NCBI RefSeq assembly: GCF_021246445.1
Contig: NZ_JAJQXW010000001.1
Span: forward strand, 310,001-374,000
Reading direction: 5' to 3'
Source of the DNA: Rhabdothermincola salaria
GTDB taxonomy: Bacteria > Actinomycetota > Acidimicrobiia > Acidimicrobiales > Acidimicrobilacustridaceae
DNA length: 64,000 nucleotides
Shown here: in pieces, positions 49,283 through 64,000 of the stretch
Layout: every line of letters begins with the position of its first letter
Position numbering within the stretch: position 1 is the first letter of the stretch
Notes under the pieces: model-generated
What the model was told of the DNA's origin: nothing
Seen by the model: only the letters and a program-made list of their open reading frames with translations
Database searches by the model: none
Translations under genes and position numbers: made by a program

Positions 49283-50101
49283 GTGAGCTCGCGGAGAACC
49301 CTGATCCTCATCGGCGCCATCGTGTTGGGCGTCGTCGCCGCGTTGTTGTTGTTCAACTACGTCCGAGGCATCGAGGATCGCGCCAACGACAACGCCCGGC
49401 GCGTCGACGTCTACGTGGCCGATCGCGACATCGCCCGAGGGGTGCCCGGTGAGACGGCCACCGCCGACGGGAGCATCGGTCAGTCCCAGATCCCCCAGGA
49501 GTTCCGTCCGGCCAGCGCGGTGACCACCACCGACGAGCTGCAGGGCAAGGTGGCGCTGTTCGACATCCCGGCCAGCTCGGTCATCGTGCGGGGCATGTTC
49601 GTCGACCCGGCCCAGACCCAGATCAGCTTCCGGGCCCGTCTGCGCAACCCCGAGCACGTGGCCGTGTCCGTCTCCACCGACCAGGTGCGCGGTGTGGCCG
49701 GCTTCCTCGTCCCCGGCGACGAGGTCAACCTGATGGTCTTCTCCGACGTGCCGGCGAGCGAGGACCCCAACGCCGCCAGCAGCGCCATCCAGCAGGCGGG
49801 CCGCTACCTGTACCAGAAGGTGCAGATCCTGGCCGTGGGCGAGTCCACCATCCTGGCTCCGGGTGAGGAGACCGACGCCGCGGCCACCCCTGCGGCCAAC
49901 TCGGGCATCATCACCTTCAACGTGCCGGCCGATGCCGCCCAGTGGATCGCGGCCGCTCAGCAGGGCGGCGGGTTCTACATGACGCTCGTGGCCCCGGATT
50001 ACACCCCGCAGCCGTTGCCGGCCCCCGACCTGGCCGGCCCGCTGCCCGGCGAGGACCCCGCCGTGTTGACCCCGTACGGCCCCCAAGGCAACCAGGAGTA
50101 G
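49283..50101 (+). CDS. cpaB: Flp pilus assembly protein CpaB/RcpC
   Basis: N-terminal TM, SAF-like VYVADRDIARG, GVAGFLVPGDEVN, VQILAVG. Confidence 0.88.
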   Translation: MSSRRTLILIGAIVLGVVAALLLFNYVRGIEDRANDNARRVDVYVADRDIARGVPGETATADGSIGQSQIPQEFRPASAVTTTDELQGKVALFDIPASSVIVRGMFVDPAQTQISFRARLRNPEHVAVSVSTDQVRGVAGFLVPGDEVNLMVFSDVPASEDPNAASSAIQQAGRYLYQKVQILAVGESTILAPGEETDAAATPAANSGIITFNVPADAAQWIAAAQQGGGFYMTLVAPDYTPQPLPAPDLAGPLPGEDPAVLTPYGPQGNQE

Positions 50102-50112
50102 GTGAGACGTAG

Positions 50113-51351
50113 GTGACCAGCCCGTTCTCCGGATCGTCCGGTGATGGATTTCCCGACCTCCCCCCGACCGCCGGCGACGGCGGTGGTGGGGAGGCGCGGG
50201 TCGCGGTGGCGGTGGTCGACGACGACCAGGCCACCCGGTCGCGCATGGCGATGCAGCTCGGCAACGGCACGGCCGCCTTTGCCAGCATCGGGGAGCTGGC
50301 GGCGTCGCTGACGGGTGCGCCCGTGGTGGTGGTGCTGGGGCCGTCGCTGGCCACCAGCTCGGACCTCTCGACCACCGAGCAGCTGCTGGCCGCCCGGCGG
50401 GAGGTGGGCGCCATCATGGTGACCGACGAGCTGTCCACCGACACGCTCCAGCGGGCCCTGCGGGCCGGCGTCAAGGACGTGCTGCAGGCCCCGGTCGACT
50501 CCAACCAGTTCGACGAGGCCATCGGCCGGGTGGCGGCCACCTTGCGGCCGGCACCGGCGACGGCCCCGCCCATGGTCGTCGAGGGCGAGGCTCCCGGCGA
50601 GCTCGGTCGGGTCATCATGGTGTTCTCCACCAAGGGCGGCTCGGGCAAGTCGGTCATCGCCTCCAACCTGGCCGTGCTCCTGGCCGAGCGCAGCGAGAAG
50701 CCGGTCGTGCTGGTCGACGCCGACCTGCAGTTCGGCGACGTGGCCGTGATGCTCAAGCTCACGCCCCAGCACACCATCGTCGACGCCGTCGGCTCGCTCG
50801 ACCGCCTCGACGACACCCTGCTCAAGGAGCTCCTCGCCACCCACGAGCCCGAAGGGCTCTGGGTCCTCCCGGCCCCGCTCGAGCCGGCGTTCGCCGACCA
50901 GATCGGCGCCGCCGAGATGGTGCGCATCGTCGAGCAGCTGCGCAGCTTCGCCGGTCACGTGGTCATCGACACCCCGGCGTACTTCAACGACGTCGTGCTC
51001 GGGCTCATCGAGATCAGCGACGACGTGCTGTTGGTGGCGGGCATGGACATCCCCAACATCAAGAACGTCAAGATCGGCCTGCAGACCCTCCGGCTGCTCA
51101 ACACCCCGATGGAGAAGCTGCGCCTGATCCTGAACCGGGCCAACTCCAAGGTCCGCCTCGACGCCTCGGAGGTCGAGCGCACCCTCGGCGTGCAGGCCGA
51201 TGCCCTCATCCCCAGCGACATCGTGGTGCCGCAGTCGGTGAACCGGGGCGAGCCCGTGGTCCACGTGGCCCCCAAGTCGTCGGTCGCCAAGTCGTTCAAC
51301 GAGTTGGCCGACCTCTTCCTCCCTGCGCCGGCCAAGAAGCGCCGGCGGTGA
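50113..51351 (+). CDS. cpaE: CpaE/TadZ-like pseudo-receiver plus MinD/ParA ATPase
   Basis: REC-like N-terminus (ALRAGVKDVL), KGGSGKS deviant Walker A, VDADLQFGD, IDTP. Confidence 0.87.
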   Translation: MTSPFSGSSGDGFPDLPPTAGDGGGGEARVAVAVVDDDQATRSRMAMQLGNGTAAFASIGELAASLTGAPVVVVLGPSLATSSDLSTTEQLLAARREVGAIMVTDELSTDTLQRALRAGVKDVLQAPVDSNQFDEAIGRVAATLRPAPATAPPMVVEGEAPGELGRVIMVFSTKGGSGKSVIASNLAVLLAERSEKPVVLVDADLQFGDVAVMLKLTPQHTIVDAVGSLDRLDDTLLKELLATHEPEGLWVLPAPLEPAFADQIGAAEMVRIVEQLRSFAGHVVIDTPAYFNDVVLGLIEISDDVLLVAGMDIPNIKNVKIGLQTLRLLNTPMEKLRLILNRANSKVRLDASEVERTLGVQADALIPSDIVVPQSVNRGEPVVHVAPKSSVAKSFNELADLFLPAPAKKRRR

Positions 51352-51398
51352 CCTTGCCCCCCGACGAGACCCTTCGAGAGCACTGAGGTAGCCCGCGG

Positions 51399-52754
51399 AT
51401 GTCCCTCTACAAGCGTCTCCACGATGTGCAGGGTGCCCCGGAAGCCGGGGCACCCCGTCGCGACCCGATCCTCGACGACCTGCGCCAGCGGATCCACCAC
51501 CACCTGATCGAAGAGCTCGGCCCGATCATCTACGACAAGCGCTTGTCCGAGGACGACCTGCGCAAGCGGGTGAACGAACAGCTGCACGTGGCCCTGGCCG
51601 CCGAGCGGGCCCCGCTGTCGGCCGCCGACAAGGCCCAGCTCATCCAGGACGTCTCCGACGACATCCTCGGCTACGGCCCGATCGATCGCCTCCTGAGGGA
51701 GGACGACATCTCCGAGGTCATGGTCAACGGCCCCGAGCAGGTCTACGTCGAGCGCAACGGCAAGCTCGAGAAGTCCACGGCCAACTTCGTCGACGACGTC
51801 CACCTGCGGCGCATCATCGACAAGATCGTCGGCGAGATCGGCCGGCGCATCGACGAGGCCAACCCGCTCTGCGATGCCCGTCTGCCCGACGGCTCGCGCG
51901 TCAACGCCGTCATCCACCCCCTCGCCATCGGCGGGCCCTTCCTCACGATCCGGAAGTTCGCCAAAGAGAAGCTCCAGATCGACGACCTCATCCGCTTCGG
52001 CACCCTCAACGCCCATTCGGCCCGCTTCCTGCAGGCCTGCGTGGTGGGTCGGCTCAACGTCATGGTCTCCGGGGGCACCGGCACCGGCAAGACCACCACC
52101 CTCAACGTGCTGTCATCGTTCATCCCCGAGGGCGAGCGCATCGTCACCGTGGAGGACGCCAAGGAGCTCCAGCTCCACCAGGACCACGTCCTCGCCCTCG
52201 AGGCCCGGCCGGCCAACATCGAGGGGCGGGGCGAGATCACCATTCGCGACCTGGTGAAGAACTGCCTGCGGATGCGCCCCGACCGCATCGTGGTGGGGGA
52301 GTGCCGCTCCGGTGAGGCCCTCGACATGCTCCAGGCCATGAACACCGGCCACGACGGGTCGCTCACGACGGTGCACTCCAACAGCCCGCGCGACACCCTG
52401 GCCCGCCTCGAGACCCTGGTGCTCATGGCCGGCTTCGATCTGCCGGTGCGGGCCATCCGCGAGCAGATGGCGGCGGCGCTCGACGTCATCGTGCACCTCA
52501 GCCGGCTCCGCGACGGCACCCGTCGCATCACCCACATCACCGAGGTGCAGGGCATGGAGGGCGATGTCATCACCCTCCAGGACATCTTCTTGTTCGACTA
52601 CGGGATGGGCGTCGACGAGCACGGCCGCTTCAAGGGGCACCTCAAGGCCACCGGCGTGCGACCCAAGTTCGCCGAGAAGCTGTCCGACATGGGCATCCGC
52701 CTCGGCCAGGAAGTCTTCCAGCCCGAGGGCTTCGCTCGCCGGGCCTCGGGCTGA
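51399..52754 (+). CDS. cpaF: Tad pilus assembly ATPase
   Basis: DARLPDGSRVN, GGTGTGKTT, LRMRPDRIVVGE, AMNTGHDG. Confidence 0.95.
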   Translation: MSLYKRLHDVQGAPEAGAPRRDPILDDLRQRIHHHLIEELGPIIYDKRLSEDDLRKRVNEQLHVALAAERAPLSAADKAQLIQDVSDDILGYGPIDRLLREDDISEVMVNGPEQVYVERNGKLEKSTANFVDDVHLRRIIDKIVGEIGRRIDEANPLCDARLPDGSRVNAVIHPLAIGGPFLTIRKFAKEKLQIDDLIRFGTLNAHSARFLQACVVGRLNVMVSGGTGTGKTTTLNVLSSFIPEGERIVTVEDAKELQLHQDHVLALEARPANIEGRGEITIRDLVKNCLRMRPDRIVVGECRSGEALDMLQAMNTGHDGSLTTVHSNSPRDTLARLETLVLMAGFDLPVRAIREQMAAALDVIVHLSRLRDGTRRITHITEVQGMEGDVITLQDIFLFDYGMGVDEHGRFKGHLKATGVRPKFAEKLSDMGIRLGQEVFQPEGFARRASG

Positions 52755-52764
52755 CGGAGCTGAC

Positions 52765-54792
52765 ATGACCGCCACCCCGACGACCCCGGCATCCACAGGG
52801 CGCCGCGCCCGGAGCGCCCGGCCCGTCGCCGTCGCGGCCGTGTTCGTTGTGCTGCTCCTGGCCCTGGCCGCGGTGGTCGTCGGTGGCCCCGTCGGAGCCC
52901 AGGACACCGGCTCGTTGGTCCTGCGCCAGGTCGACACGTCCGAGCCGGCCGACTCCAGGCTGCAGTTCGTCTACACGGGCCCGGCCTCCGAGGTCGAGGA
53001 CGCCCGCCTGGTGGGCAACGGCGACCAGATCTCGTCGGCGCCGCCACGGGCCCTGCCCGGGTCCACCCCCATCGCCACCGCCCTGGTCTTCGACACGTCG
53101 ACCGCCATGGACGAGTCGGGTGCGCTGGTGGCGGCCAAGGACGCGGCCAAGGAGTGGGTCGAGGATCGCAGCGGTGCCGCCGCGGCCAACCAGGTCTTCG
53201 CGGTGTACGCGGCCAGCGACACCGGCATCCAGATCCAGGGCTTCACCTCTGACACCGAGCGCCTGGTGGCCGCCATCGACCGGGTCGCTCCCGCGGCCGC
53301 CACCGAGGACCAGGGCCTGTCGGCGATGTGGTCGGCGGTCGGCCAGGCCGCCTCGGCCCTCGATGCCCGCAACGCCGAGCAGCCGAACCTGGTGGTGATG
53401 ACGGGCACCACCGACAACGCCACTCCGTCCGCCGAGCGCCCCGCCGCTCGGGGCGACGTCACGTCGTCGGGGGCCACCGTCTTCGCCGCCGAGTACCTCA
53501 ACGCGGGGCTCGACCCGGCCGCCGTCGACTCCCTGGTGGCCACCAACGGCGGGCTGGTGCTCCGCTCCGACAGCGGCCCCGACTTCGGCGAGCTCGTCGA
53601 GGAGATCGCCACCGCCATCACCGAGCAGCAGTACGAGATGGTCTACGACGCCGGCGTCGATCCGGGCACGGTGGTCGACCTCACCCTCGAGGTCGGTGGT
53701 CAGAGCGCCACCGCATCGGTGGTCACCGGTTCGTCGGTGCAGGGCGAGGTCGCCCTCAACCCCGAGATCATCGAGTCCTCCGGTGGCGTCTCGGCCCTGC
53801 AGGGCAACCTGGGGCTGATCGCACTGGTGCTGGTGGGTCTGCTGGCCGCCGGGTTGTTCGCCTTCGCCATCTTCTCGCTGTTCGTCCGCGAGGACCGCCT
53901 GGCCCAGGTGCTGCAGCCCTACGACGACGCCATGACCACCTCGGCGCTCGGCGACGGGGCTGACGACGACGCCGACACCTCGCTGGCCCGCACCGCCATC
54001 GTGCAGCGGGCCGTGCAGATCACCGAGCAGGTGGCCACCGATCGGGGGCTGCTGGTCAAGGTCGAGAACGCGCTCGAGCGGGCCAACCTCCCGCTGCGCG
54101 CCGGCGAGGGCCTCTTCTTCTACGCCGCCGGCGTGGTGTTGCTCACCATCCTCGCCTTCGTGGTGGGCGGCAGCCTCATCCTCGGCCTCATCGTCGGGCT
54201 GTTCGCCGCCATCGTCCCCCCGGCGGTGGTGAACTTCCTTGCCGCCCGGCGGCGCAAGCAGTTCATGGCCCTGCTGCCCGACACGCTCTCGCTGCTGTCG
54301 GGCACCCTGCGGGCGGGCTATTCGCTGATGCAGGGCGTGGAGGCCGTGTCCCAGGAGGTGGCCGAGCCCATGGGCACCGAGCTGCGCCGGGTGGTCACCG
54401 AGGCCCGCCTCGGCCGTCCGCTCGAGGAGGCCCTCGACTACACCGCCGTGCGCATGGCCTCGCCGGACTTCGCCTGGGCCGTCATGGCCATCCGCATCCA
54501 GCGCGAGGTCGGTGGCAACCTCTCCGAGCTGCTCATGACGGTGGCCGACACCATGGTCCAGCGCGAGCGTCTCCGCCGCGACGTGTCCGCCCTCACCGCC
54601 GAGGGGCGGGTCAGCGCCTTCGTCCTCGGGGCCCTGCCCATCGGTCTCGGAGCGGTCATGTTCGTGCTCAACCCGGACTACACCAACAAGCTCATCACCG
54701 AGGGACTGGGCAACCTGATGCTCGCCGTCGGGGTGGTGTCGATGCTCATCGGCTTCGCCTGGATGAAGAAGATCATCGACATCGAGATCTGA
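52765..54792 (+). CDS. tadB: TadB (T2SS-F) platform protein fused to an N-terminal exported vWA-like domain
   Basis: Signal-like N-terminus, LVFDTS vWA strand, C-terminal LRAGYSL..QREVGGNL..LTAEGR. Confidence 0.85.
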   Translation: MTATPTTPASTGRRARSARPVAVAAVFVVLLLALAAVVVGGPVGAQDTGSLVLRQVDTSEPADSRLQFVYTGPASEVEDARLVGNGDQISSAPPRALPGSTPIATALVFDTSTAMDESGALVAAKDAAKEWVEDRSGAAAANQVFAVYAASDTGIQIQGFTSDTERLVAAIDRVAPAAATEDQGLSAMWSAVGQAASALDARNAEQPNLVVMTGTTDNATPSAERPAARGDVTSSGATVFAAEYLNAGLDPAAVDSLVATNGGLVLRSDSGPDFGELVEEIATAITEQQYEMVYDAGVDPGTVVDLTLEVGGQSATASVVTGSSVQGEVALNPEIIESSGGVSALQGNLGLIALVLVGLLAAGLFAFAIFSLFVREDRLAQVLQPYDDAMTTSALGDGADDDADTSLARTAIVQRAVQITEQVATDRGLLVKVENALERANLPLRAGEGLFFYAAGVVLLTILAFVVGGSLILGLIVGLFAAIVPPAVVNFLAARRRKQFMALLPDTLSLLSGTLRAGYSLMQGVEAVSQEVAEPMGTELRRVVTEARLGRPLEEALDYTAVRMASPDFAWAVMAIRIQREVGGNLSELLMTVADTMVQRERLRRDVSALTAEGRVSAFVLGALPIGLGAVMFVLNPDYTNKLITEGLGNLMLAVGVVSMLIGFAWMKKIIDIEI

Positions 54793-54803
54793 GGAAAGCT
54801 GCC

Positions 54804-55730
54804 ATGGCGCTCATCATCGGACTCGCCCTCGTGGCCCTGGTCATCGCCCTGGTGGTGTGGGCCCTGGGCAGCCAGGCCGACGAGAAGGCGGTGGTGCGGT
54901 CCTCGCTGCGCCAGCTCGAGGGCTACGAGGTCGAGAACGTCCGCGACCAGGAGCTGCTGGTGCCGCTGCGCGACCGGGCCATCGCCCCGGTGCTCACCGG
55001 CCTCAGCGACCTCGGGCGCCGCTTCACCCCCGCCGGCTACGTCGACACGGTCCGCCGCAAGTTCGTATCGGCCGGCAACCCGTCGGCCGAGGCAGTGGAT
55101 CGGTTCCTCGCCATCCGGGTGCTCACCGTCGCGCTCGTGCCGTTCGCCTTCATCCTGGTCTTCGTCCTCAACCCCCTCGGGTTCGAGGGGTTGATGCAGC
55201 TCGGGGCGTTCGCCCTGCTGGCCTTCGCCCTCGTGGCCGGGCCCGACGCCGTGCTCAACCGTCGGGTCGAGGAACGGGCCAACGAGCTGCAGCGCAAGCT
55301 CCCCGACATCCTCGACCTGCTCACCATCTCCGTGGAGGCCGGCCTCGGGTTCGAGCAGGCCCTCGACCGCACCATCGCCGCCGTACCGGGGGCGCTCTCC
55401 GACGAGTTCGCCCGCATGCTGGGCGAGGTGCGCGCCGGCGCCAGCCGGGCCGACGCCATGCGGTCCATGGAGCAGCGCACCGACGTGCCCGAGGTGCGCT
55501 CGTTCGTGCTGGCCATCCTGCAGGCCGACACCTTCGGTGTCTCCATCGGCCGGGTGCTGCGGGCCCAGGCCGACGAGATGCGCATCAAGCGCCGCCAGGC
55601 GGCCCAGGAGCGGGCCCAGAAGGCACCCGTGAAGATGATGATCCCCATGGTGTTCTGCATCTTCCCGGCTCTGTTCGTCGTCGTCATCGGCCCCGCCATC
55701 ATCAACATCCGTGAAGGCTTCGGAGGCTGA
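54804..55730 (+). CDS. tadC: TadC (T2SS-F) platform protein
   Basis: LPDILDLL.ISVEAGLGF, QADTFG, AQKAPVKM..P...CIFP. Confidence 0.9.
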   Translation: MALIIGLALVALVIALVVWALGSQADEKAVVRSSLRQLEGYEVENVRDQELLVPLRDRAIAPVLTGLSDLGRRFTPAGYVDTVRRKFVSAGNPSAEAVDRFLAIRVLTVALVPFAFILVFVLNPLGFEGLMQLGAFALLAFALVAGPDAVLNRRVEERANELQRKLPDILDLLTISVEAGLGFEQALDRTIAAVPGALSDEFARMLGEVRAGASRADAMRSMEQRTDVPEVRSFVLAILQADTFGVSIGRVLRAQADEMRIKRRQAAQERAQKAPVKMMIPMVFCIFPALFVVVIGPAIINIREGFGG

Positions 55731-57171
55731 GGCCGTCGCCACCCGGGCCTCGGCGACGGCTCCGGGATGGCTCCGGGCCCCCGCGCTCAGCACGCTCGTC
55801 GGGGGGATCCTCGTCCTGTGGGGCGTGTACCTGGGCATGGCCCGGATCAGCGACAACAGCTTCCTCACCCACCTGGCCACGGGCCGGCTGATCCTCGACA
55901 CCGGGTCCATCCCCCGGTCGGACCCGTACTCGTTCTCCGCCGCCGGCGAGCCGTGGGTGGTGCAGAGCTGGCTGGCCTCGATCGTCTACGCCGGTGTCGA
56001 ACGCCTCGGCGGCATCGACGGGGTCCGGTTGCTCACCGCCGCCCTCATGGCCCTGCTCATGGGCATCATCTGGGCCCTCACGCGACCGGCCGACGGTCTG
56101 GTCGTCCGCTTCGCGGTGGCCGCCTCGGCCGCCGCCGTGGGGGCGGTGGCCTGGTCGCCTCGGCCGCTGCTCTTCGGCTTGGTGCTGTTGGGGCTCACTC
56201 TCCTGGCCGTGGAGCGGCGCTGGCCGGCGCCTGTCCTCGTCCCGGTCTTCTGGCTGTGGGTGAACACGCACGGTTCGTTCCCGCTCGGGTTGGCGCTCCT
56301 GGCCGTGCTGGCCCTGGGCTCCCACCTCGACGGACGTGAGCCCCGTGTCGAGCTCCGCGCTCTGCTGTGGGCTGGTGTCGGCACCCTGCTCGGTGCCGTC
56401 AATCCTCTGGGCCTGTCCCTGCTCACCTTCCCCCTGCGGGCGCTCGAGCAGCGCGACGTCTTCGGCTACGTGGTGGAGTGGCAGCCACCTGACTTCTCGG
56501 GGACCCTGGGGCGGCTCTTCCTGTTGCAGCTGGCCATTGCTGTCGCCGCCCTGGTCCGCCGTCCCAGCTGGCGGGTGGCCCTGCCGCTGGTCGCCTTCGG
56601 GGCGATGGGCTTCGTGGCCTCGCGCAACATCGCGGTGGCCTCGATCGTGCTCCTGCCGGGGATGGCCGCGGGCCTGGCCGGGCTGGGCGGGCTGAAGGGT
56701 CGCGAGCGGGGTCGGGGCACCGTCATCGGTGGGGCGGTTCTGCTGGCCATCGGCGTCCTTGTCGTCGTGGGAGGCCTGGCTCGGCCGGCCTACGACCTGA
56801 GTCGGTTCCCGGTGGACGCAGTGGCGTGGACGGAAAAGGAAGGGCTGCTCGGGCCCGAGCAGCGTCGAATGGCGCCGGACACCGCCGGGAACTACCTGGA
56901 GCTGGTGCTCGGTCCCGAGGCAGCTGTGTTCGTCGATGATCGGGTCGACATGTACCCCAGCGGGATCATCGAGGACGCGGTGGCGCTGAAGGGCAGCGGC
57001 GTCGGGGGTCTCGCCATCGTCGAGCGGTGGCACCCCGATGTCGTGATCTGGCCCCGCGCTGCTGCCTTGTCCGAGGCCCTGCTGGCGAATTCGGCATGGG
57101 CGCTGGGCTACAGCGACGATGAATGGCTGGTGTTCACCCCGGCCGATGGCGACAGTTCGTCGCTGGGTTGA
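55711..57171 (+). CDS. Polytopic membrane protein, putative GT-C-fold glycosyltransferase
   Basis: About 11 TM; D..F.THL.TG..I...G.IP..DPYS....PW loop after TM1, RPLLFG, WVNTHGSF, EWQP, C-terminal soluble VFVDDRVDMY. Confidence 0.6.
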   Translation: MKASEAEAVATRASATAPGWLRAPALSTLVGGILVLWGVYLGMARISDNSFLTHLATGRLILDTGSIPRSDPYSFSAAGEPWVVQSWLASIVYAGVERLGGIDGVRLLTAALMALLMGIIWALTRPADGLVVRFAVAASAAAVGAVAWSPRPLLFGLVLLGLTLLAVERRWPAPVLVPVFWLWVNTHGSFPLGLALLAVLALGSHLDGREPRVELRALLWAGVGTLLGAVNPLGLSLLTFPLRALEQRDVFGYVVEWQPPDFSGTLGRLFLLQLAIAVAALVRRPSWRVALPLVAFGAMGFVASRNIAVASIVLLPGMAAGLAGLGGLKGRERGRGTVIGGAVLLAIGVLVVVGGLARPAYDLSRFPVDAVAWTEKEGLLGPEQRRMAPDTAGNYLELVLGPEAAVFVDDRVDMYPSGIIEDAVALKGSGVGGLAIVERWHPDVVIWPRAAALSEALLANSAWALGYSDDEWLVFTPADGDSSSLG

Positions 57172-57180
57172 GCAACGCGA

Positions 57181-57214
57181 CGAGGGGCGGGACCCCGGAG
57201 GATCCCGCCCCTCG
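57181..57214. terminator. Hairpin between convergent tad operon and pilin genes
   Basis: CGAGGGGCGGGA / TCCCGCCCCTCG. Confidence 0.6.
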
Positions 57215-57230
57215 ACGACTAGGGATGCGG

Positions 57231-57401
57231 TCAGAGAGCGCTGCTGACGGAGCTGCCGGAACGGTCCAGGCTGTCGTACAGGCTGTCACCGAGGAAGATC
57301 AGCGCCGTGACGCACACCAGGGCGATGAGGGCGAGGAGGAGTGCGTACTCGACGAGGCTGGCACCCTCGTCGCCCTCGCGGAGCTCGTCTCCGTGGGGCA
57401 T
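57231..57401 (-). CDS. flp: Flp family type IVc pilin (second copy)
   Basis: G|ASLVEYALLLALIALV Flp motif; Ser-rich C-terminus. Confidence 0.85.
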   Translation of the reverse strand: MPHGDELREGDEGASLVEYALLLALIALVCVTALIFLGDSLYDSLDRSGSSVSSAL

Positions 57402-57438
57402 CGGACCTCGCTTGGTGGTCAGGTGACCGGAAATGCGA

Positions 57439-57469
57439 ACGAGCGGGACGGTGGAACCGTCCCGCTCGT
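57439..57469 (-). terminator. Hairpin between the two pilin genes
   Basis: ACGAGCGGGACGGT-gga-ACCGTCCCGCTCGT perfect 14-bp stem. Confidence 0.65.
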
Positions 57470-57487
57470 CAGCCGAAGTGGCAGGTG

Positions 57488-57679
57488 TCAGGCGCCCTGG
57501 ATCTCGGAGCCGACCTCGTTGAACTGATCGCTCGCCGAGTCGCCGATGAAGCTGATGGCGATGATGCACACCACGGCGATGAGGGCGACGAGAAGGGCGT
57601 ACTCGACGAGCGAGGCGCCACGGTCGGACTTGGTGCGGGCCTGGAGCCAGGCGCTGATGAAGTCGTAGGAGGTCATCAT
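57488..57679 (-). CDS. flp: Flp family type IVc pilin (probable major pilin)
   Basis: RG|ASLVEYALLVALIAVV; GGGAG SD upstream. Confidence 0.92.
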   Translation of the reverse strand: MMTSYDFISAWLQARTKSDRGASLVEYALLVALIAVVCIIAISFIGDSASDQFNEVGSEIQGA

Positions 57680-57754
57680 GTTCGGGGGTTCTCCCTGTGC
57701 TGGTGCTGTCGGAAGGCCCGGAGCACCGGACCCGTTGTCGTTGCGACAGGAGAA

Positions 57755-57781
57755 GTATCGGCGCAGGGGCAGCGGACTTTA
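57755..57781 (-). promoter_or_regulatory. Sigma-28/WhiG-type promoter of flp
   Basis: Minus strand TAAA-N15-GCCGATAC, near-perfect match to TAAA-N15-GCCGATAA. Confidence 0.75.
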
Positions 57782-57888
57782 TGGGCAATCCGGCCCTTTC
57801 CCCTGAAAAAGACCTCCAGAGGCCGAAATGAGCCATTTGACCTAGTCGGTCGCCGGAGACCCGTTGCTCAGCGGGCGCCCACACCCCT

Positions 57889-58545
57889 TCAGTCGAGGTG
57901 CACGATGCCCATGCGCACGGCCTGCAGCACGGCCTGGGTGCGGTCGCGCGCGTCGAGCTTCTGGTAGATCGAGGCCAGGTGGTTCTTCACCGTCTTCTGG
58001 CTGATGTAGAGCTGCTCGGCCACCTCGGGGGTGGAGCACCCGTCGGCGATGAGCTGGAGGACCTCTTCCTCCCGCCGGGTGATGATGCGCTCCTCCTCGG
58101 CGGCGCCGAACGACGGGTCGCTGTCGAGGCGGCGCACCTCGTCGAGCATCGACGCCGCCAGCTGCGGTGACAGGGCGGTCTCCCCGCTCACCGCCAGGCG
58201 CACGGCGGTGGCGATCTCGGTGGTGGAGCAGTCCTTGACCAGGTAGCCCGAGGCCCCGGCCCGGATGGCGGCGGCCAGTACCTCCTGGTCGGCGTGCATG
58301 GTGAGCATCACCACCCGGGTGGAGGGCAGGCTGCCCCGGATCTGGCGGGTGGCCTCCACGCCGTCCATCTCCGGCATGGTGACGTCCATCAGGATCACGT
58401 CGGGGCGCAGCTCGTCGGCCATGCGCACGGCCTCTTCGCCGTTGCCGGCCTCGCCGACCACGTCGAAGCCCTGCTCGAGCATGGATCGCCGCAGGCCTTC
58501 GCGCAGCATGCGGTGGTCGTCGGCCAGCATCAAGCGGATCGTCAC
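57889..58545 (-). CDS. NarL/LuxR-family response regulator
   Basis: ADDH, MDVTMP, GYLVK, TRREEEVL, KTVKNHLASIYQKL. Confidence 0.94.
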   Translation of the reverse strand: MTIRLMLADDHRMLREGLRRSMLEQGFDVVGEAGNGEEAVRMADELRPDVILMDVTMPEMDGVEATRQIRGSLPSTRVVMLTMHADQEVLAAAIRAGASGYLVKDCSTTEIATAVRLAVSGETALSPQLAASMLDEVRRLDSDPSFGAAEEERIITRREEEVLQLIADGCSTPEVAEQLYISQKTVKNHLASIYQKLDARDRTQAVLQAVRMGIVHLD

Positions 58546-58601
58546 GTGGGGTCCTCCGTCGCCTCGTCCCCTGCCGGGGCGGCCCCCTGAGGAGGGCGAG
58601 A

Positions 58602-60398
58602 TCAGCCTAGGACGCCGGACGCGGCCGTGGAGCGAGCGGCGGCACTGCTGCCGTTGCCGTTGCCGTTGGCCCGCAGGAGGCTGCAGCGGACGCGAGTGCC
58701 CTTGCCCTCCTCGCTGGCCACCTCGAGGGTGGCGCCGATGCTGGAGGCCCGCTCCCGCATGCCCATGAGGCCGTAGGAGTCGAGCCGTCCCGCCTTGCCG
58801 ATGGGGAAGCCCTTGCCGTCGTCGGTGACCTCGAGGGCGGCCGCCTCGCCGTTGCAACGCCACAGCACCCGCACCCGGGATGCGCCGGAGTGGCGCTCGA
58901 CGTTGGTGAGCGCCTCCTGGGCGATGCGCCACATCTCGCGCTCCTGCAGCAGGGGCAGTCGGGCGTCGCGGTCGCAGTGCAGCTCGACGACCAGGTCGCT
59001 GCGCTCGCGCACGCGGGTGGCGTAGGTCTCGAGGGTGTCGGCCATGCCCTGGGTGTCGGTGACGTCGGTGCGCAGGTCGTAGAGGGTGTCGCGCACCTCG
59101 CGGATGACGCCACGCACGTCGTTGCGCAACTGGTCGAGCGACGCCCCCACGTCGGCGCCCTCGGCCTGGGCGGCCACGATGCGGTCGAGCTCGAAGGCCA
59201 GGTAGGCCAACGACTGGCCGATGCGGTCGTGGAGGTCGCGGGCGATGCGGGTGCGCTCTTCGTCGGCGCCGACCGTGCGCAGCCGGTTGAACCAGCGGGC
59301 GTTGTCGATGGCCAGGGCGACCGGCTCCACGAAGCCCCGCAGCAGCTCCACGTCGCGCTCGGTGAAGTGGCCCTCCTGGCCGTCCTCGATGACGAGCAGG
59401 CCGATCACCGAGCCCCGCGCCGCCAGCACGGCGTAGATGCCAGAGGCCGAGCGGGGCGCCAGGCCGGTCCAGCTCGAGCCGTTGAGGCTGGGCACCGACA
59501 GCAGGCTCTTCTCGGCCACCGCCTTCTTGGCCGGGGTGGGGAGGTCGGAGAGCTGGAGGCGGGCGGGGAGGGGCCGTCCTCCTTCGCGGCGCAGCACTTC
59601 CCAGTGGCCGTCGGTGTCGTCGAGGCCCAGGATGGCCAGTGTGTCGAACTCGAAGAGGCCCCGGAGGCGGGTGACCGAGGTCTGCAGCACGTCGTCGAGG
59701 TCGAGCGAGGCGGGAAGGGTCTGGGTGACGCGGTGCAGGCTGTAGAGCAGGGCGTTGGCGTCGGAGAGCTGGCCCAGGCGGTCGAGGGCCAGCTCGTGCT
59801 GGCGGTCGGCCTCACCGGAGATGCGCCGGGCGTAGCCGGAGATGACGCCCACGAGGAGCAGCACGAGCGTCCACTGGGCGGACTGGACGATGCGGTCGTT
59901 GGCCTGGTCCTCGATGAGGAAGGGCAGGCTGACGACGAGCGTGGTGGCGATGGCCACGCGGATGGCGAAGGCGAAGCCCCGGGCGAAGCCGGCGACGGCG
60001 GTGGCGCTCAGCAGCGACAGGATGAAAGGGCTCTCCCAGTACCCGGTGGTGATGACGCACAACGAGAAGAGGACGACCTCGGCCAACACGGCCACCAGGC
60101 TGCGCACGTCGCCCAGGTAGCGGATGGGCCGGAACGTGCGCACGATCGTGTAGGTGAGCAGGACGCTGCACCAGATGGCGGTGCGGGCGGGCGCGGCGTC
60201 GTAGTCCTGGGTGGCGAGGGCGACCGAGGCGATGGCCACCCCCCAGCGGATGGCCAGGATGGCGGGGTTGAACGCCGCGACCCGGTCGACGCGCTGGGTG
60301 AGGCCGATCCCGTCGTCGCGGGTCGAGCCGTCATCGCTCTGGGAGAACTGCCGCACTCGCTGGCGCCAGGTCATGGTGTCCTCGTCGACGCTCACCAC
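58602..60398 (-). CDS. Membrane GAF-domain sensor histidine kinase (HisKA_3)
   Basis: About 6 TM, GAF, EERTRIARDLHD, QEALTNVERH, DDGKGF, GLMGMRERA. Confidence 0.92.
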   Translation of the reverse strand: MVSVDEDTMTWRQRVRQFSQSDDGSTRDDGIGLTQRVDRVAAFNPAILAIRWGVAIASVALATQDYDAAPARTAIWCSVLLTYTIVRTFRPIRYLGDVRSLVAVLAEVVLFSLCVITTGYWESPFILSLLSATAVAGFARGFAFAIRVAIATTLVVSLPFLIEDQANDRIVQSAQWTLVLLLVGVISGYARRISGEADRQHELALDRLGQLSDANALLYSLHRVTQTLPASLDLDDVLQTSVTRLRGLFEFDTLAILGLDDTDGHWEVLRREGGRPLPARLQLSDLPTPAKKAVAEKSLLSVPSLNGSSWTGLAPRSASGIYAVLAARGSVIGLLVIEDGQEGHFTERDVELLRGFVEPVALAIDNARWFNRLRTVGADEERTRIARDLHDRIGQSLAYLAFELDRIVAAQAEGADVGASLDQLRNDVRGVIREVRDTLYDLRTDVTDTQGMADTLETYATRVRERSDLVVELHCDRDARLPLLQEREMWRIAQEALTNVERHSGASRVRVLWRCNGEAAALEVTDDGKGFPIGKAGRLDSYGLMGMRERASSIGATLEVASEEGKGTRVRCSLLRANGNGNGSSAAARSTAASGVLG

Positions 60399-60402
60399 TC
60401 AG

Positions 60403-60429
60403 TTGTCGGTCGCTGGCCGCGAACCTTGA
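60403..60429 (-). promoter_or_regulatory. Sigma-28-like promoter of the two-component operon
   Basis: Minus strand TCAA-N15-ACCGACAA just before the kinase GTG. Confidence 0.5.
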
Positions 60430-60490
60430 ACCTCGAGACGCGTCGAAGCTCCAGGAATCCCGTGCCCGGCGCCGATGGTACCGTCGCCGC

Positions 60491-61111
60491 GTGCTGCGCA
60501 TCGGGCTGACAGGGGGCATCGGATCAGGCAAGTCGACCGTGTCGGCGGGCCTGGCCGAGCGGGGGGCGGTGGTCATCGACGCCGACGCCGTGGTCAAGGA
60601 GCTCCAGGCCCCGGGCCAACCGGTGCTGGCCGCCATGGTCGAGCGCTTCGGCCCCGGCATCCTGCTCGCCGACGGCAGCCTCGACCGCCAGGCCGTGGCC
60701 GACGTGGTCTTCACCGACGCCGAGGCCCTGGCCGACCTCAACGCCATCGTGCACCCGGCGGTGGGAGCCGAGATCATGCGGCGCATCGAGGCCGAGGAGG
60801 GCACCGACCACGTGGTGGTCCTCGACGTGCCCTTGTTGGTGGAGAACGAGGCCTTCGAGGTGGCGGCCGTCGTGGTGGTCGACACCGACCCCGAGATCGC
60901 CGTGCAGCGCCTCGTCGAGCACCGGGGGTTCACCGAGGACGACGCCCGGGCCCGGATCTCGCGCCAGGCGTCGCGCGAGCAGCGCCTGGCCCGAGCGGAC
61001 TTCGTGATCCCCAACGACGGCGATCGGGCCGCACTGGACGCCCACGTCGAGCGCTGCTGGGCGTGGATCCAGGAGCTCCACGCCGGCCAGGCACCCGACG
61101 CGGCGGGCTGA
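60491..61111 (+). CDS. coaE: Dephospho-CoA kinase
   Basis: IGLTGGIGSGKSTV, IDAD, LDR, IVHP, DVPLL. Confidence 0.96.
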   Translation: MLRIGLTGGIGSGKSTVSAGLAERGAVVIDADAVVKELQAPGQPVLAAMVERFGPGILLADGSLDRQAVADVVFTDAEALADLNAIVHPAVGAEIMRRIEAEEGTDHVVVLDVPLLVENEAFEVAAVVVVDTDPEIAVQRLVEHRGFTEDDARARISRQASREQRLARADFVIPNDGDRAALDAHVERCWAWIQELHAGQAPDAAG

Positions 61112-61120
61112 CCGACCAGA

Positions 61121-62521
61121 TCAGAGCCCGAGGCGGCGGCTGAGGTCGCTCTGCAGGCGCCGGTCGGGATCGACCCGGTCGCGCACGGCGCGCCACTCGT
61201 CGAGGCGGGGGTACATGGTGTCGAGCAGGTCGGGGGCCATGCGGGCGTCCTTGGCCAGGTAGATGCGCCCACCGGCGGCCGCCACCTCGCGGTCGAGGCG
61301 GTCGAGCAGCGGGCCCAGGCCGGGCACCCCGGCGGGGATGTCGAGGGCCAAGGTCCAGCCCTCGGTGGGGAACGACAGCGGCCCGGGGTCGCCGGGCCCG
61401 AAGCGCTTGAGCACGGCGAGGAACGAGGTGCAGCGGGCGGCGCTGAGGTCGCCGACGATGCGGCGCAGCACGTCGTCGGTGCCCGGCGGGATGACGAACT
61501 GCCACTGCACGAAGCCGGCGGGGCCGTAGAGGCGGTTCCAGCCGCCGACCATGTCGAGGGGGTGGAAGAAGGCAGGGATGGACTGCAGCTCGTCGCGGCG
61601 GCGAACGGGGGCCTTGCGGAACCACAGCTCGTTGAACGCCTTCACCGAGAGCCGGTTGAGCAGCCCCGAGGGGACGACGGGCGGAGCGGAGGCCAGCACG
61701 CCGGCCCGGTAGTCGAAGGGCCAGGATGCCCCGCCCTCGGTGGCTTCGTCAGCAGTGGCGAAGCGGCCGCGTGTGAGCACGGAGCGACCGAGCGAGCGGC
61801 CCGAGGCCATGAGGTCGATCCAGGCCACGGAGTAGTCGTAGGCGTGGTCACCGGTGGCCATGAGGCCCATGACGGCGTCGAGGTCGGGGGCGCGGTCGGT
61901 GTCGACGAGGAGCTGGCTCGACCCGATGCGGGGGCAGGCGAAGGTGGCGTCGACGATCACGCCGGTGAGCCCCATGCCGCCGGCGGTGGCCCAGAACAGC
62001 TCGGGGTCCCGGTCGGGGCCGATCTCGACCACCTCGCCGTCGGGGAGCTGCAGGCGCATCGACACCACGTGGTCGCACCACGAGCCGGAGTGGTGGTGGT
62101 TCTTGCCGTGGATGTCGGCGGCGATGGCCCCGCCGACGGTCACGTAGCGGGTGCCGGGGGTGACGGGTACGAACAGGCCCTGGGGCACCAAGGCGTGCAG
62201 GAGCCGGTCGATGGACGTGCCGGCCTCGGCGGTGACCAGCACCCGGTCGGCGTCGGGGTCGGCGTCGTGGACCCAGAACCCGTCGACGTCGACGGTGTCG
62301 ACCACCCGCCCGCCGGCGTTCTGGGCGGCGTCGCCGTAGCTGCGACCCAGGCCCCGGGCGATGAGGCCACGCCGGTCGGTGGTGGGCAGCGCCCGGCGCA
62401 GCTCGGTGGTGGAGGTGGGGCGGCGCAGGTCGGCGGCGGAGGGTGCCGTGCGACCCCACCCGGTCAGCTCGGCCGGGTGACGGTGGGCCGGGGCGTTGGG
62501 TTCAGGAGGTGTAGACGGCAC
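61121..62521 (-). CDS. dprE1: DprE1-like FAD oxidase (polyprenyl-P-ribose 2'-oxidase)
   Basis: LTGWGRT, ARGLGRSYGDAAQN, VTPGT.YVTVGGAIAADIHGKNHH, GGMGLTG, GGRIYLAKD; start uncertain. Confidence 0.88.
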   Translation of the reverse strand: MPSTPPEPNAPAHRHPAELTGWGRTAPSAADLRRPTSTTELRRALPTTDRRGLIARGLGRSYGDAAQNAGGRVVDTVDVDGFWVHDADPDADRVLVTAEAGTSIDRLLHALVPQGLFVPVTPGTRYVTVGGAIAADIHGKNHHHSGSWCDHVVSMRLQLPDGEVVEIGPDRDPELFWATAGGMGLTGVIVDATFACPRIGSSQLLVDTDRAPDLDAVMGLMATGDHAYDYSVAWIDLMASGRSLGRSVLTRGRFATADEATEGGASWPFDYRAGVLASAPPVVPSGLLNRLSVKAFNELWFRKAPVRRRDELQSIPAFFHPLDMVGGWNRLYGPAGFVQWQFVIPPGTDDVLRRIVGDLSAARCTSFLAVLKRFGPGDPGPLSFPTEGWTLALDIPAGVPGLGPLLDRLDREVAAAGGRIYLAKDARMAPDLLDTMYPRLDEWRAVRDRVDPDRRLQSDLSRRLGL

Positions 62522-63413
62522 AGCCGTAGATGATGGCCCACACCACGCCGGCACCGAGGACGATCCGGTCCGACAGGATGAGGACCTCCGGTTCGGCGCC
62601 CTTGCCCTGGTCCAGCAGCAGGGCGTAGCGCAGGATGGCCACCGCGAAGGGCACGATCGACACCTGGAACAGCACCGCCCCGTCCGGGTTGGTCTGCCCG
62701 GAGGTGAAGGCCCAGATGCAGTAGGCGATGAGCACCCCGCCGGAGAACACGGCGCGGAGGTAGTGCAGGAAGCTGGGCGTGTAGGCGCCGAGGGCGGGGC
62801 GGACGGCCACGGCGTCGTCGGCCAGGTCGAGGGACTCGCCGTGGCGCTTGCCGGTGACCATGAACAGCGCCCCGAACGAGGTGACGATGAAGAACCACTC
62901 CGAGATGGGCACGCCGACGGCGGCGGCGCCGCCCACGGCGCGCAGCACGAAGCCGGCGGAGATGGCCACGATGTCGAGGACGGGCTGCTCCTTGAGCCAG
63001 TAGGTGTAGGCGGTGGTCAGGCCCAGGTAGGCCACCAGCACCCACCCGAAGTCCGGTTCCAGCAGGAAGCCGCCCACCAGGGCGGCCACCAGCAGCACCG
63101 CCGCCAGCGCGTAGGCCAGTCCGGGGGAGACGACACCGGCGGCGATGGGCCGGTTGCGCTTGGTGGGGTGGAGGCGGTCGGCCTCCACGTCGGTGGCGTC
63201 GTTGACCAGGTAGGTGGCGCTGGCTGCTGCGCAGAAGCAGGCGAAGGCCCCGGCCGTGTGGAGGAGCACCTCGCCCTGGTCGATGACCCCGGCGGCCACC
63301 GGGGCCGCCACCACGAGCACGTTCTTGGCCCACTGCTTGGGGCGCAGGGAGCGGACGATGCCGGCGGCCAGCGACGGGCGCGGCGCGTCCGTGGGGCGGT
63401 CGGCGTGGGTCAT
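62502..63413 (-). CDS. UbiA-family decaprenyl-phosphate phosphoribosyltransferase (DPPR synthase)
   Basis: RPKQWAKN, YLVND..DVEADRLHPTKRNRPIAAG, GFVLRA..G, GKR. Confidence 0.9.
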   Translation of the reverse strand: MTHADRPTDAPRPSLAAGIVRSLRPKQWAKNVLVVAAPVAAGVIDQGEVLLHTAGAFACFCAAASATYLVNDATDVEADRLHPTKRNRPIAAGVVSPGLAYALAAVLLVAALVGGFLLEPDFGWVLVAYLGLTTAYTYWLKEQPVLDIVAISAGFVLRAVGGAAAVGVPISEWFFIVTSFGALFMVTGKRHGESLDLADDAVAVRPALGAYTPSFLHYLRAVFSGGVLIAYCIWAFTSGQTNPDGAVLFQVSIVPFAVAILRYALLLDQGKGAEPEVLILSDRIVLGAGVVWAIIYGCAVYTS

Positions 63414-63414
63414 C

Positions 63415-64000
63415 TCAGCGAGCGCTGACCTTGCGCCACAGGCCTCGGGGGAGGTGGCCGAGCACGAAGAACAGGTAGCGCAGCACCGGTGGGGCCCAGA
63501 TGACCTCTCGGCCCTTGGCCAGACCCTCGACGATGGCCTCGGCCACCTTCTCGGGGGTGGTGGAGAACGGCGCCGGGTCCATGCCCTCGGTCATCTTGGT
63601 GTGCACGAAGCCGGGTCGGACCACCACGGCGCGCGCCCCGGTGCCGATGAGGGCGTCGCCGAGGCCCTGGGTGAAGGCATCGAGGCCGGCCTTGGACGAC
63701 CCGTAGACGTAGTTGTCGCGTCGGGTCCGCACCCCGGCCACCGACGACAGCACCAGCAGGGTGCCGTGGCCCTGGCGACGGAGGCGCTCGGCCACGGCCA
63801 AACCGCTCGAGACGGCGCCGGTGTAGTTCACGGTCACGGCGTCGGCGGCGGCCACGGGGTCGGCGTCGAACGTGGTCTGGTCGCCGAGCACGCCGAAGGC
63901 CGAGATGACCAGGTCCAGGTCGCCGAAGCGGTCGAAGCAGTCGTCGACGACCCCTTGGTGCGACGCCGGATCGGTGGCGTCGAAGGCCACCGTCTCCACC
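63415..64000 (-). CDS. dprE2: DprE2-like SDR reductase (5' part beyond window)
   Basis: FDATD, FGVLGDQ, VNYTG, SSVAG.R.R..NYVYGSSKAG, VRPGFV.TKMT. Confidence 0.85.
   Translation of the reverse strand, partial: VETVAFDATDPASHQGVVDDCFDRFGDLDLVISAFGVLGDQTTFDADPVAAADAVTVNYTGAVSSGLAVAERLRRQGHGTLLVLSSVAGVRTRRDNYVYGSSKAGLDAFTQGLGDALIGTGARAVVVRPGFVHTKMTEGMDPAPFSTTPEKVAEAIVEGLAKGREVIWAPPVLRYLFFVLGHLPRGLWRKVSAR

Follow-up and report, generated by a model that had tools for sequence, protein, structure and literature searches.

Background

Glycosylated pilins are known from type IVa pili, where TfpO/PglL and TfpW are the modifying enzymes, and from archaea, whose type IV pilins and archaellins are N-glycosylated by AglB; the modification has effects on resistance to phages, on adhesion, and on the stability of the fibre. 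PMT/GT39 and DPY19 enzymes, acting on the outer or lumenal side, transfer a single sugar from polyprenyl or dolichyl phosphate onto protein. TfpW, the pilin D-arabinofuranosyltransferase of Pseudomonas aeruginosa group IV, is a polytopic enzyme of the glycosyltransferase C (GT-C) type encoded beside the pilin gene, and passages of bioRxiv 10.1101/2020.04.19.049825 place its loop 1 and C-terminal domain on the outside and define its proline motif, YX6PFX7P. Here, a gene comparable in position is described from Rhabdothermincola salaria, within a stretch of 64,000 nucleotides (nt) henceforth called the window (G000:C1:310001-374000, i.e., part of contig C1 of a genome of 3.9 Mb and ~72% G+C). 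In the window, the tad operon of a Flp/Tad (type IVc) pilus ends in an open reading frame (ORF) for a membrane protein of 486 amino acids (aa), P0001 (55711..57171, + strand). We consider it rather probable that P0001 is a pilin-linked GT-C glycosyltransferase of a new family, that the donor used by this family is, as a rule, not decaprenyl-phosphoryl-arabinose, and that the dprE1-ubiA-dprE2 operon found nearby is separate from it. A previous reading of the same DNA from its letters alone (the sequence-only reading), which cited the Flp of Aggregatibacter as glycosylated, had proposed that the product of this operon is used to arabinosylate the Flp pilins. In the literature searched, partly judged by titles, no enzyme tied to Flp/Tad pilin modification was found, and the glycosylation passages of the review PMC13234629 name type IVa pilins only.

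Fold and sequence family of P0001

The P0001 ORF begins with GTG, overlaps tadC by 20 nt, and is single-copy in the genome; the gene is predicted to be co-transcribed with or tightly coupled to tadC. A model was generated with AlphaFold2 from an alignment of 42 homologues (predicted local distance difference test (pLDDT) 92.4, predicted template modelling score (pTM) 0.90). It has the features by which a GT-C fold is recognised, i.e., a polytopic core with 11 long membrane helices, a first extracytoplasmic loop with membrane-lying helices, and, at the C-terminus, an alpha/beta domain that begins near residue 360. The sequence-only reading had described a GT-C-like protein of about 11 transmembrane helices (TM) overlapping tadC, with an acidic/His loop after TM1 and a soluble C-terminal domain, and all of this was recovered, D48, H54, and D71 of the loop being invariant in the 42-sequence alignment. 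The small C-terminal domain would face outward because of the count of 11 helices together with GT-C precedent.

A Foldseek search of the PDB with the model gave 24 matches at E ≤ 0.001; of the ranks listed, the first 36 are without exception GT-C enzymes. In structural alignments with VIA-align, human STT3A scored Z 18.8 (root-mean-square deviation (rmsd) 4.6, 425 aligned), followed by AglB (17.9), DPY19 (17.1), Pmt4 (16.5), PglB (15.4), and ArnT (13.4); this ranking as closest to STT3/AglB needs care because X1, an unrelated GT-C protein encoded nearby, scores Z 20-22 against ArnT, ALG12, Pmt4, and STT3. ALG structures and PIG-U chains (Z 11.2-11.7) were also matched, and the mycobacterial arabinosyltransferases gave Z 12.4 (AftA), 11.9 (EmbA-EmbB), 11.5 (AftD), and 9.8 (AftB). 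Residues 363-478 alone matched the C-terminal globular domain of AglB (Z 8.0, rmsd 2.9, 108 aligned). The nearest named clusters in the ESM Atlas carried PMT_2, Dpy19 or STT3, with a feature score of 0.92, which is taken as a lead only. The model, the Foldseek search, and the structural Z scores agree, and the prediction that P0001 is a membrane glycosyltransferase with a GT-C fold is well supported.

By sequence, P0001 had no Pfam match (E ≤ 0.01) and no NCBIfam match. No GT-C family of Pfam, including STT3 (PF02516), PMT, and PMT_2, was matched by the 42 aligned homologues even at E ≤ 10, and a profile of the family retrieved nothing from the PDB sequences at E ≤ 10. At least 1176 homologues were found among 8000 candidates scored; the 120 homologues listed carry no Pfam domain, and the sole name given to them is ‘hypothetical protein’. 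Judged by these searches, P0001 belongs to a GT-C sequence family unnamed in Pfam and NCBIfam. Ten residues (D71, W82, W87, R151, W183, H187, E256, R305, D409, and R411) are shared by the 42 aligned sequences, show at most two exceptions each in 23 further members from the class Acidimicrobiia (27-50% identity), and recur in 11 or 12 of the 12 homologues compared from outside the class, D71 being replaced by E in one of the latter. This near-invariance, which extends down to 26-34% identity, is consistent with an enzyme. D48 is additionally invariant in the 65 class members compared.

Comparison with described GT-C enzymes

The likeness to TfpW ends with the polytopic GT-C-type architecture and the position of the gene beside a pilin gene. 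The loop-1 DDX motif of TfpW is absent in the P0001 family, in which the class motif at this place is D-N, and the motif YX6PFX7P was found in 0/65 family members, as was the Emb-like motif YX6PX5P; TfpW and P0001 were compared by motifs and description. P0001 has no C-terminal TPR domain by Pfam, its family shows no dependence on the DprE1/DprE2 pathway, and the pilus concerned is a Flp/Tad (type IVc) pilus of Gram-positive Actinomycetota, in contrast to the type IVa pilin modified by TfpW.

STT3, AglB, and PglB provide the best whole-protein structural matches, and AglB also matches in its C-terminal domain. Unlike these enzymes, the P0001 family has no WWDxG motif (regular expressions WWD.G and WWD, 0/65 sequences) and no Pfam STT3 match, and the pilins of the window are without a sequon. 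P0001 is also more compact, with about 486 aa versus 640-870 aa and with 11 helices in its model, fewer than the 13 of those enzymes. Its C-terminal domain holds a D-[DS]-R motif (409-411), at most a possible counterpart of WWD. PMT/GT39 and DPY19 enzymes share the GT-C fold (Z 16.2-17.1), but P0001 has no match to Pfam PMT, PMT_2, or Dpy19 and no MIR domain, and is linked to one pilus system. EmbA/B/C, AftA, AftB, and AftD are likewise GT-C enzymes, but with the lower Z scores given above (9.8-12.4), and P0001 matches neither Arabinose_trans (PF04602) nor GT-C_AftD (PF11847).

Linkage of the P0001 gene to tad and flp

For the analysis of gene neighbourhoods, one genome per species was scanned, which yielded 341 stretches encoding a P0001 relative, and the best 80 loci were taken. 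In 67 of the 72 loci whose upstream DNA extends over at least 1.1 kb, tadC ends at most 400 nt upstream of the P0001 gene on the same strand, the exceptions being L024, L040, L047, L058, and L075. An ORF with the Flp motif lies at most 3.5 kb downstream in 57/65 loci. In all of 20 further loci from a class-wide search, 17 of which hold distant members of 26-34% identity, tadC is again followed by the P0001 gene. Since a block from rpsA to uvrB is inherited across the class, adjacency within the class alone could be passive synteny and is not independent evidence. However, the P0001 gene stays with flp, the response regulator (RR), and the histidine kinase (HK) in three rearranged loci (L024, L058, and L110) in which the tad operon was moved and inverted, and this argues against passive synteny.

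Outside the class, a phylum-level sample of 301 genomes was searched at a stricter first threshold, so that its counts are a floor; it includes one unpublished genome (G336), by which a count shifts by one. The P0001 family was found in at least 22/301 genomes, 17 of them out-of-class by their kinship entries. In 9 of the 12 out-of-class loci that were fetched, tad genes accompany the P0001 gene inside the 10 kb retrieved, in varied orders and orientations, a pairing that is not explained by inherited gene order, and in four of the 12 (L150, L154, L158, and L159) a flp gene lies within about 450 bp. A persistent linkage of the family with tad and flp, as expected from the sequence-only reading, was thus found inside the class and beyond.

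Two further approaches were given up. A search for additional genes between the P0001 gene and flp from which the donor could be named showed a gap of more than 900 nt in only 3/80 loci, with nothing informative in it. TadC was dropped as a marker of the rpsA-linked tad locus; 170/201 genomes match at E ≤ 1e-5, and it is unusable because paralogous loci match too.

The Flp pilins as presumed acceptor

Two Flp pilin genes on the - strand converge on the P0001 gene, and both carry the processing motif G/ASLVEYALL and Ser in their tails, in agreement with the sequence-only reading. The nearer one, flp pilin 2 (57231..57401, 56 aa), is convergent with the P0001 gene at a distance of 60 nt and matches Pfam Flp_Fap at E 7.9e-05 (enclosing ORF), under the gathering score. 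Flp pilin 1 (57488..57679, 63 aa) was recognised by sequence reading as the conserved major type, and its orthologues across related loci have similar leaders and the same processing motif. Between the convergent genes lies a GC-rich terminator-like hairpin without a T run (57181..57214); the fold of 57165-57240 has -34.9 kcal/mol (z -2.47), and 3/200 shuffled sequences were equally stable. A scan of 55500-58000 gave 0 promoter-like sites and 3 terminator-like sites versus 0.9 expected, none of them at the gene junction.

No N-x-S/T sequon was detected in Flp1 of the window by regular expression, and Flp2 has no Asn by eye, so that N-glycosylation of the window pilins is unsupported. Some orthologous pilins carry N-A-S, the Asn of which is not conserved. 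Often (L006, L038, L051, L083, and L091 are among the loci concerned), flp is present as 3-5 nearly identical genes in tandem. Many loci also have another type of pilin, the longer tail of which carries paired Cys.

The dpr operon and the sugar donor

About 4 kb from the P0001 region, and as described by the sequence-only reading, lie dprE1 (61121..62554), the gene of a decaprenyl-phosphate phosphoribosyltransferase of the UbiA family (62502..63413), and dprE2 (63415..64000), all on the - strand; dprE2 is cut by the window end and continues for 185 nt to C1:374185. All three enzymes exceed the NCBIfam equivalog cut-offs (NF053785, 586 bits, cut-off 500; NF008978, 355 bits, cut-off 207; and NF053786, 257 bits, cut-off 250, respectively).

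The distribution of these genes was compared across a class sample of 201 genomes with a completeness of 90% or more, with thresholds of E ≤ 1e-10 for the P0001 family and E ≤ 1e-50 for DprE1. The tallies of DprE1, TadC, AftD, and the PMT_2-type GT-C family f4 include one unpublished genome (G168), by which a count shifts by one, leaving the conclusions unaffected. The P0001 family is carried by 74 genomes and DprE1 by 105; both occur in 29 genomes, the P0001 family only in 45, DprE1 only in 76, and neither in 51. DprE1 tracks AftD (PF11847) instead, which accompanies it in 89 genomes (AftD only 13, DprE1 only 16, neither 83), and f4, found with it in 69 (f4 only 9, DprE1 only 36, neither 87), i.e., 89/102 AftD-positive and 69/78 f4-positive genomes carry DprE1. 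Because the genomes in these comparisons are related, Fisher values overstate the significance, a caution that counts against our own reading as well; the evidence is the direction of the associations together with natural deletions.

Such deletions were found on both sides. Five carriers of close P0001 orthologues were re-checked at loose thresholds and showed no DprE1 over the cut-off (best 72 bits versus 500), and four of them (G104, G122, G072, and G114) are also without decaprenyl-phosphate phosphoribosyltransferase. Of the out-of-class P0001 carriers, 0/5 have DprE1 at E ≤ 1e-30. Conversely, a sister genus retains the operon in the order rpsA-coaE-dprE1-ubiA-dprE2-uvrB with the tad/GT-C/flp block absent (L116, G019), and 4/4 sampled genomes of this genus have DprE1 and no P0001 family member. 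Among the 42 related loci with both flanks visible, 17 have the operon between coaE and uvrB. We read dprE1-ubiA-dprE2 as a separate module in a conserved coaE-uvrB slot, and its nearness is no evidence for pilin arabinosylation. As a rule, the donor of the P0001 family is not decaprenyl-phosphoryl-arabinose; in the genome studied here, the neighbouring operon is probably not the sugar supply of P0001, and an arabinose donor is unlikely.

The most likely consumers of the operon's product are AftD-like enzymes and GT-C enzymes of the PMT_2 type whose genes lie elsewhere in the genome, probably for a cell-envelope arabinan. An AftD homologue is encoded by an ORF of 1653 aa (G000:C1:863532-868493), which holds the sole PF11847 match genome-wide (C1:865929-867932, E 6.3e-97); a genome-wide search gave no match to Arabinose_trans (PF04602). 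Three f4 genes lie at C2:587-599 kb, the PMT_2 matches of the genome being genes other than that of P0001, and form with three AT3/SGNH acyltransferase genes a cluster (G000:C2:585221-598950, L136) that is interrupted by purA and purD. In 6/20 sampled dpr neighbourhoods, f4 and AT3-SGNH acyltransferase genes stand directly beside the dpr operon. The absence of arabinogalactan genes, from which the sequence-only reading had argued for a pilin target, holds within the window but fails as an inference; it is a window-edge effect, with two GT-C genes following 2.2-6 kb beyond dprE2 and AftD encoded elsewhere. Moreover, the dpr operon does co-occur with other arabinosyltransferases, a finding that this reading had itself named as speaking against it.

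The AftD homologue, the C2 cluster, and the dpr operon look like parts of an undescribed arabinan-type envelope pathway in Acidimicrobiia; a DprE1/AftD pathway of this kind is widely carried in the class, and no description of it for the class was found in the literature searched. According to a figure legend of the AftD preprint bioRxiv 10.1101/2019.12.22.885152, the alignment shown there includes a sequence from Ilumatobacter (Acidimicrobiales). Thirteen of 102 AftD-positive genomes have no DprE1, and four that were checked are also without decaprenyl-phosphate phosphoribosyltransferase; the AftD-like enzymes of DprE1-less genomes have no known route to the expected donor.

The two GT-C genes beyond dprE2 encode X1 (570 aa) and X2 (579 aa), paralogous polytopic membrane proteins between uvrB and uvrA (L002:2336-5771, G000:C1:376336-379771). 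X1 has no Pfam match, and its model (pLDDT 83.5) is of the GT-C type, with Z 22.3 to ArnT, 21.8 to ALG12, and 21.4 to Pmt4. Both proteins were considered as consumers of arabinose and rejected, since X1 occurs in 19/201 class genomes only and, by reading of genome lists, 6/19 are without DprE1; rarity and DprE1-less carriers make X1 a poor partner for the dpr operon. By reading of such lists, 17/19 also carry the P0001 family. In L133 (G053:C4:558900-578800), a paralogous tad-type locus (TadZ 34% and TadA 56% identity) ends ~2.5 kb upstream of ubiA-dprE1-dprE2, with a cobalamin adenosyltransferase gene in between; this proximity is probably coincidence.

Proposed role and alternative explanations

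For P0001, the GT-C fold, the conserved residues of the loop and C-terminal domain, the operon position, and the phylum-wide proximity to tad and flp are directly supported. The most likely mechanism would be that P0001 draws, at the outer membrane face, on a sugar linked to polyprenyl phosphate and attaches it to Ser or Thr of the short C-terminal tail that Flp exposes, while the pilus is being assembled or earlier, by analogy to TfpW/TfpO acting on type IVa pilins and AglB on archaeal pilins; another exported Tad component may be the acceptor instead. We tentatively extend this to the suggestion, held with less confidence, that P0001 may be the founding member of an Actinomycetota-wide GT-C family of dedicated Flp pilin glycosyltransferases, compact and STT3/AglB-like, with a sugar differing by lineage, and the first pilin-modifying enzyme connected with Gram-positives and with Tad (type IVc) pili. 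If so, the Tad pili of many environmental Actinomycetota would be glycosylated fibres. An unnamed conserved GT-C gene beside flp across the phylum is a concrete, testable candidate for pilin modification, and the family would also be new material for structure-function studies of GT-C enzymes.

Several observations weigh against a role of P0001 in pilin glycosylation, a role that is suggested by genes and a model, with Flp as the acceptor suggested by gene position alone. In a listing of all Flp ORFs in the fetched loci, few of which are without the P0001 gene, the pilin tails are not visibly different between loci with the gene (e.g., LGKxASSKFSSVGS) and those without (e.g., VSDKFNDAGT and VSSTFSDIAT), an S-x-x-F core being common to both. 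Five loci (L105, L106, L108, L113, and L114) continue from tadC to the next conserved gene without the P0001 gene, which thus appears dispensable for Tad in some lineages; in L107, 5.4 kb of other DNA is found in its place. L104 and L115 stop at a contig edge, L103 holds a copy of 27% identity that was missed at the threshold of the hidden Markov model (HMM), and L111 and L112 have a different tad architecture. Conversely, the gene has no tad operon beside it in L040 and in L047 of genome G200 (L047/L109); in G200 it lies between rpsA and coaE, and another tad-type ATPase locus is present in the genome. Likewise, three of the 12 out-of-class loci (L148, L152, and L156) show no tad gene within the fetched DNA. 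D48 is replaced by T, A, S, or N in 7/12 out-of-class homologues (alignment by mafft --add), and GT-C folds in general score highly against STT3, PMT, and ArnT, as X1 (Z 20-22 versus the same structures) illustrates.

The alternatives differ in what they make of these points. A Tad-associated role with a target other than pilin, such as an exported Tad protein (CpaB or the VWA domain of TadB) or a glycan, on a lipid carrier or in the cell wall, that needs modification at the site of pilus passage through the Gram-positive envelope, is unlikely, yet the least so of the alternatives. It draws on the same tad linkage as pilin glycosylation, the substrates of GT-C enzymes include lipids and glycans besides proteins (structures of ArnT, Emb, Aft, and ALG were matched here), and the similarity of the pilin tails and the retention of the gene in G200 speak for it. 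Against it, the broken synteny in L024, L058, and L110 leaves the P0001 gene by flp and not by tadB, tadC, or cpaB, flp adjoins the gene in 4/12 out-of-class loci, and the nearest structures, STT3, AglB, DPY19, and PMT, are protein-modifying GT-C enzymes. O-arabinosylation of Flp with decaprenyl-phosphoryl-D-arabinofuranose from the dpr operon, after the manner of TfpW as described in the above passages of bioRxiv 10.1101/2020.04.19.049825, gains from the confirmed GT-C fold, from an operon only 4 kb away that recurs in the same slot in related loci, and from the 29/74 P0001 carriers that have DprE1. We nevertheless regard it as improbable, since 45/74 carriers are without DprE1 and 76 DprE1-positive genomes are without the P0001 family, four close-orthologue carriers are without both DprE1 and the phosphoribosyltransferase, no out-of-class carrier checked has DprE1, and the sister genus retains the operon without tad or P0001 genes; DprE1 follows AftD and f4, the TfpW and Emb proline motifs occur in 0/65 family members, and the Z scores to mycobacterial arabinosyltransferases fall below those to STT3, AglB, DPY19, and PMT.

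That P0001 is a non-catalytic structural component of the actinobacterial Tad machine, comparable to PIG-U in the GPI transamidase, would accord with the structural match to PIG-U and with the lack of conservation of D48 outside the class. It is nonetheless highly improbable in view of the charged and aromatic residues D71, R151, H187, E256, R305, D409, and R411 of the loops and C-terminal domain, which are almost invariant down to 26-34% identity, and of the Tad loci that persist without the gene in several lineages. About equally improbable is a general role of P0001 in envelope or protein glycosylation, unrelated to Tad, with the linkage reflecting inherited gene order only. The conservation of the whole rpsA...uvrB block across the class, the persistence of the gene between rpsA and coaE without tad in G200, and the three out-of-class loci without tad genes in the fetched DNA fit such an account; the 9/12 out-of-class loci pairing the gene with tad in varied orders and orientations, and the rearrangements within the class that keep it beside flp, do not.

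Gene map and surroundings

The relatives of the window proteins are from Acidimicrobiales and Acidimicrobiia. Between 47 and 64 kb, the gene order is rpsA, cpaB, tadZ, tadA, VWA-tadB, tadC, P0001, two flp, a LuxR regulator, a GAF kinase, coaE, and dprE1-ubiA-dprE2; those elements that the sequence-only reading described had been correctly recognised, since Pfam, sequence reading, and NCBIfam assign them as described there. The features of a Tad/Flp (type IVc) locus are all present, i.e., Flp pilins with a processing motif, TadA, TadB/TadC, CpaB, and TadZ. On the + strand, the operon comprises a cpaB/rcpC-type Flp pilus assembly gene (49283..50101; Pfam RcpC, E 7.4e-16), a tadZ-type ParA/MinD ATPase gene with an N-terminal receiver-like domain (50113..51351; Pfam CbiA, ParA, and AAA_31, with a weak Response_reg match), the tadA/cpaF secretion ATPase gene (51399..52754; Pfam T2SSE, E 5.9e-62), tadB with a fused N-terminal VWA domain (52765..54792; Pfam VWA_2 and T2SSF), the tadC platform protein gene (54804..55730; Pfam T2SSF, E 1.1e-20), and the P0001 gene as its last. 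A prepilin peptidase is encoded away from the tad locus, at C1:1072803-1073138.

Upstream of flp pilin 1 on the - strand, a LuxR-type response regulator gene (57889..58560, start approximate; Pfam Response_reg, E 4.1e-30, and GerE, E 2.1e-18) is followed by the gene of a GAF-domain histidine kinase (58602..60398; Pfam HisKA_3, HATPase_c, and GAF). The gene at 60491..61111 on the + strand, whose translation has an N-terminal Walker-type P-loop (GxxGSGKST) and which we take to be coaE, represents housekeeping backbone between the Tad module and the dpr operon. Among the 80 related loci, flp is followed by the response regulator in 64, the GAF histidine kinase was found in 60, and coaE was matched in 56.

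A block of the order polA/rpsA-tad-GT-C-flp-RR-HK-coaE-(dpr)-uvrB-(X1/X2)-uvrA is conserved class-wide (window 43713-64000, loci L003-L115), and the pilus locus and its two-component regulator thus sit among core housekeeping genes. Positions 1-47000 of the window hold housekeeping genes, i.e., those of his/trp biosynthesis and fatty-acid synthesis, acyl-CoA enzymes, a SpoIIE-PAS phosphatase, and polA, and no glycosylation-related genes were seen there. The fusion of VWA and TadB is a single gene of 675 aa; a plot of frame-specific G+C content at third codon positions (GC3) shows one coding frame with GC3 > 0.9 spanning 52750 to 54550, the ATG at 52765 is the first in-frame start past the tadA stop, and the combined query matches 48/80 related loci.

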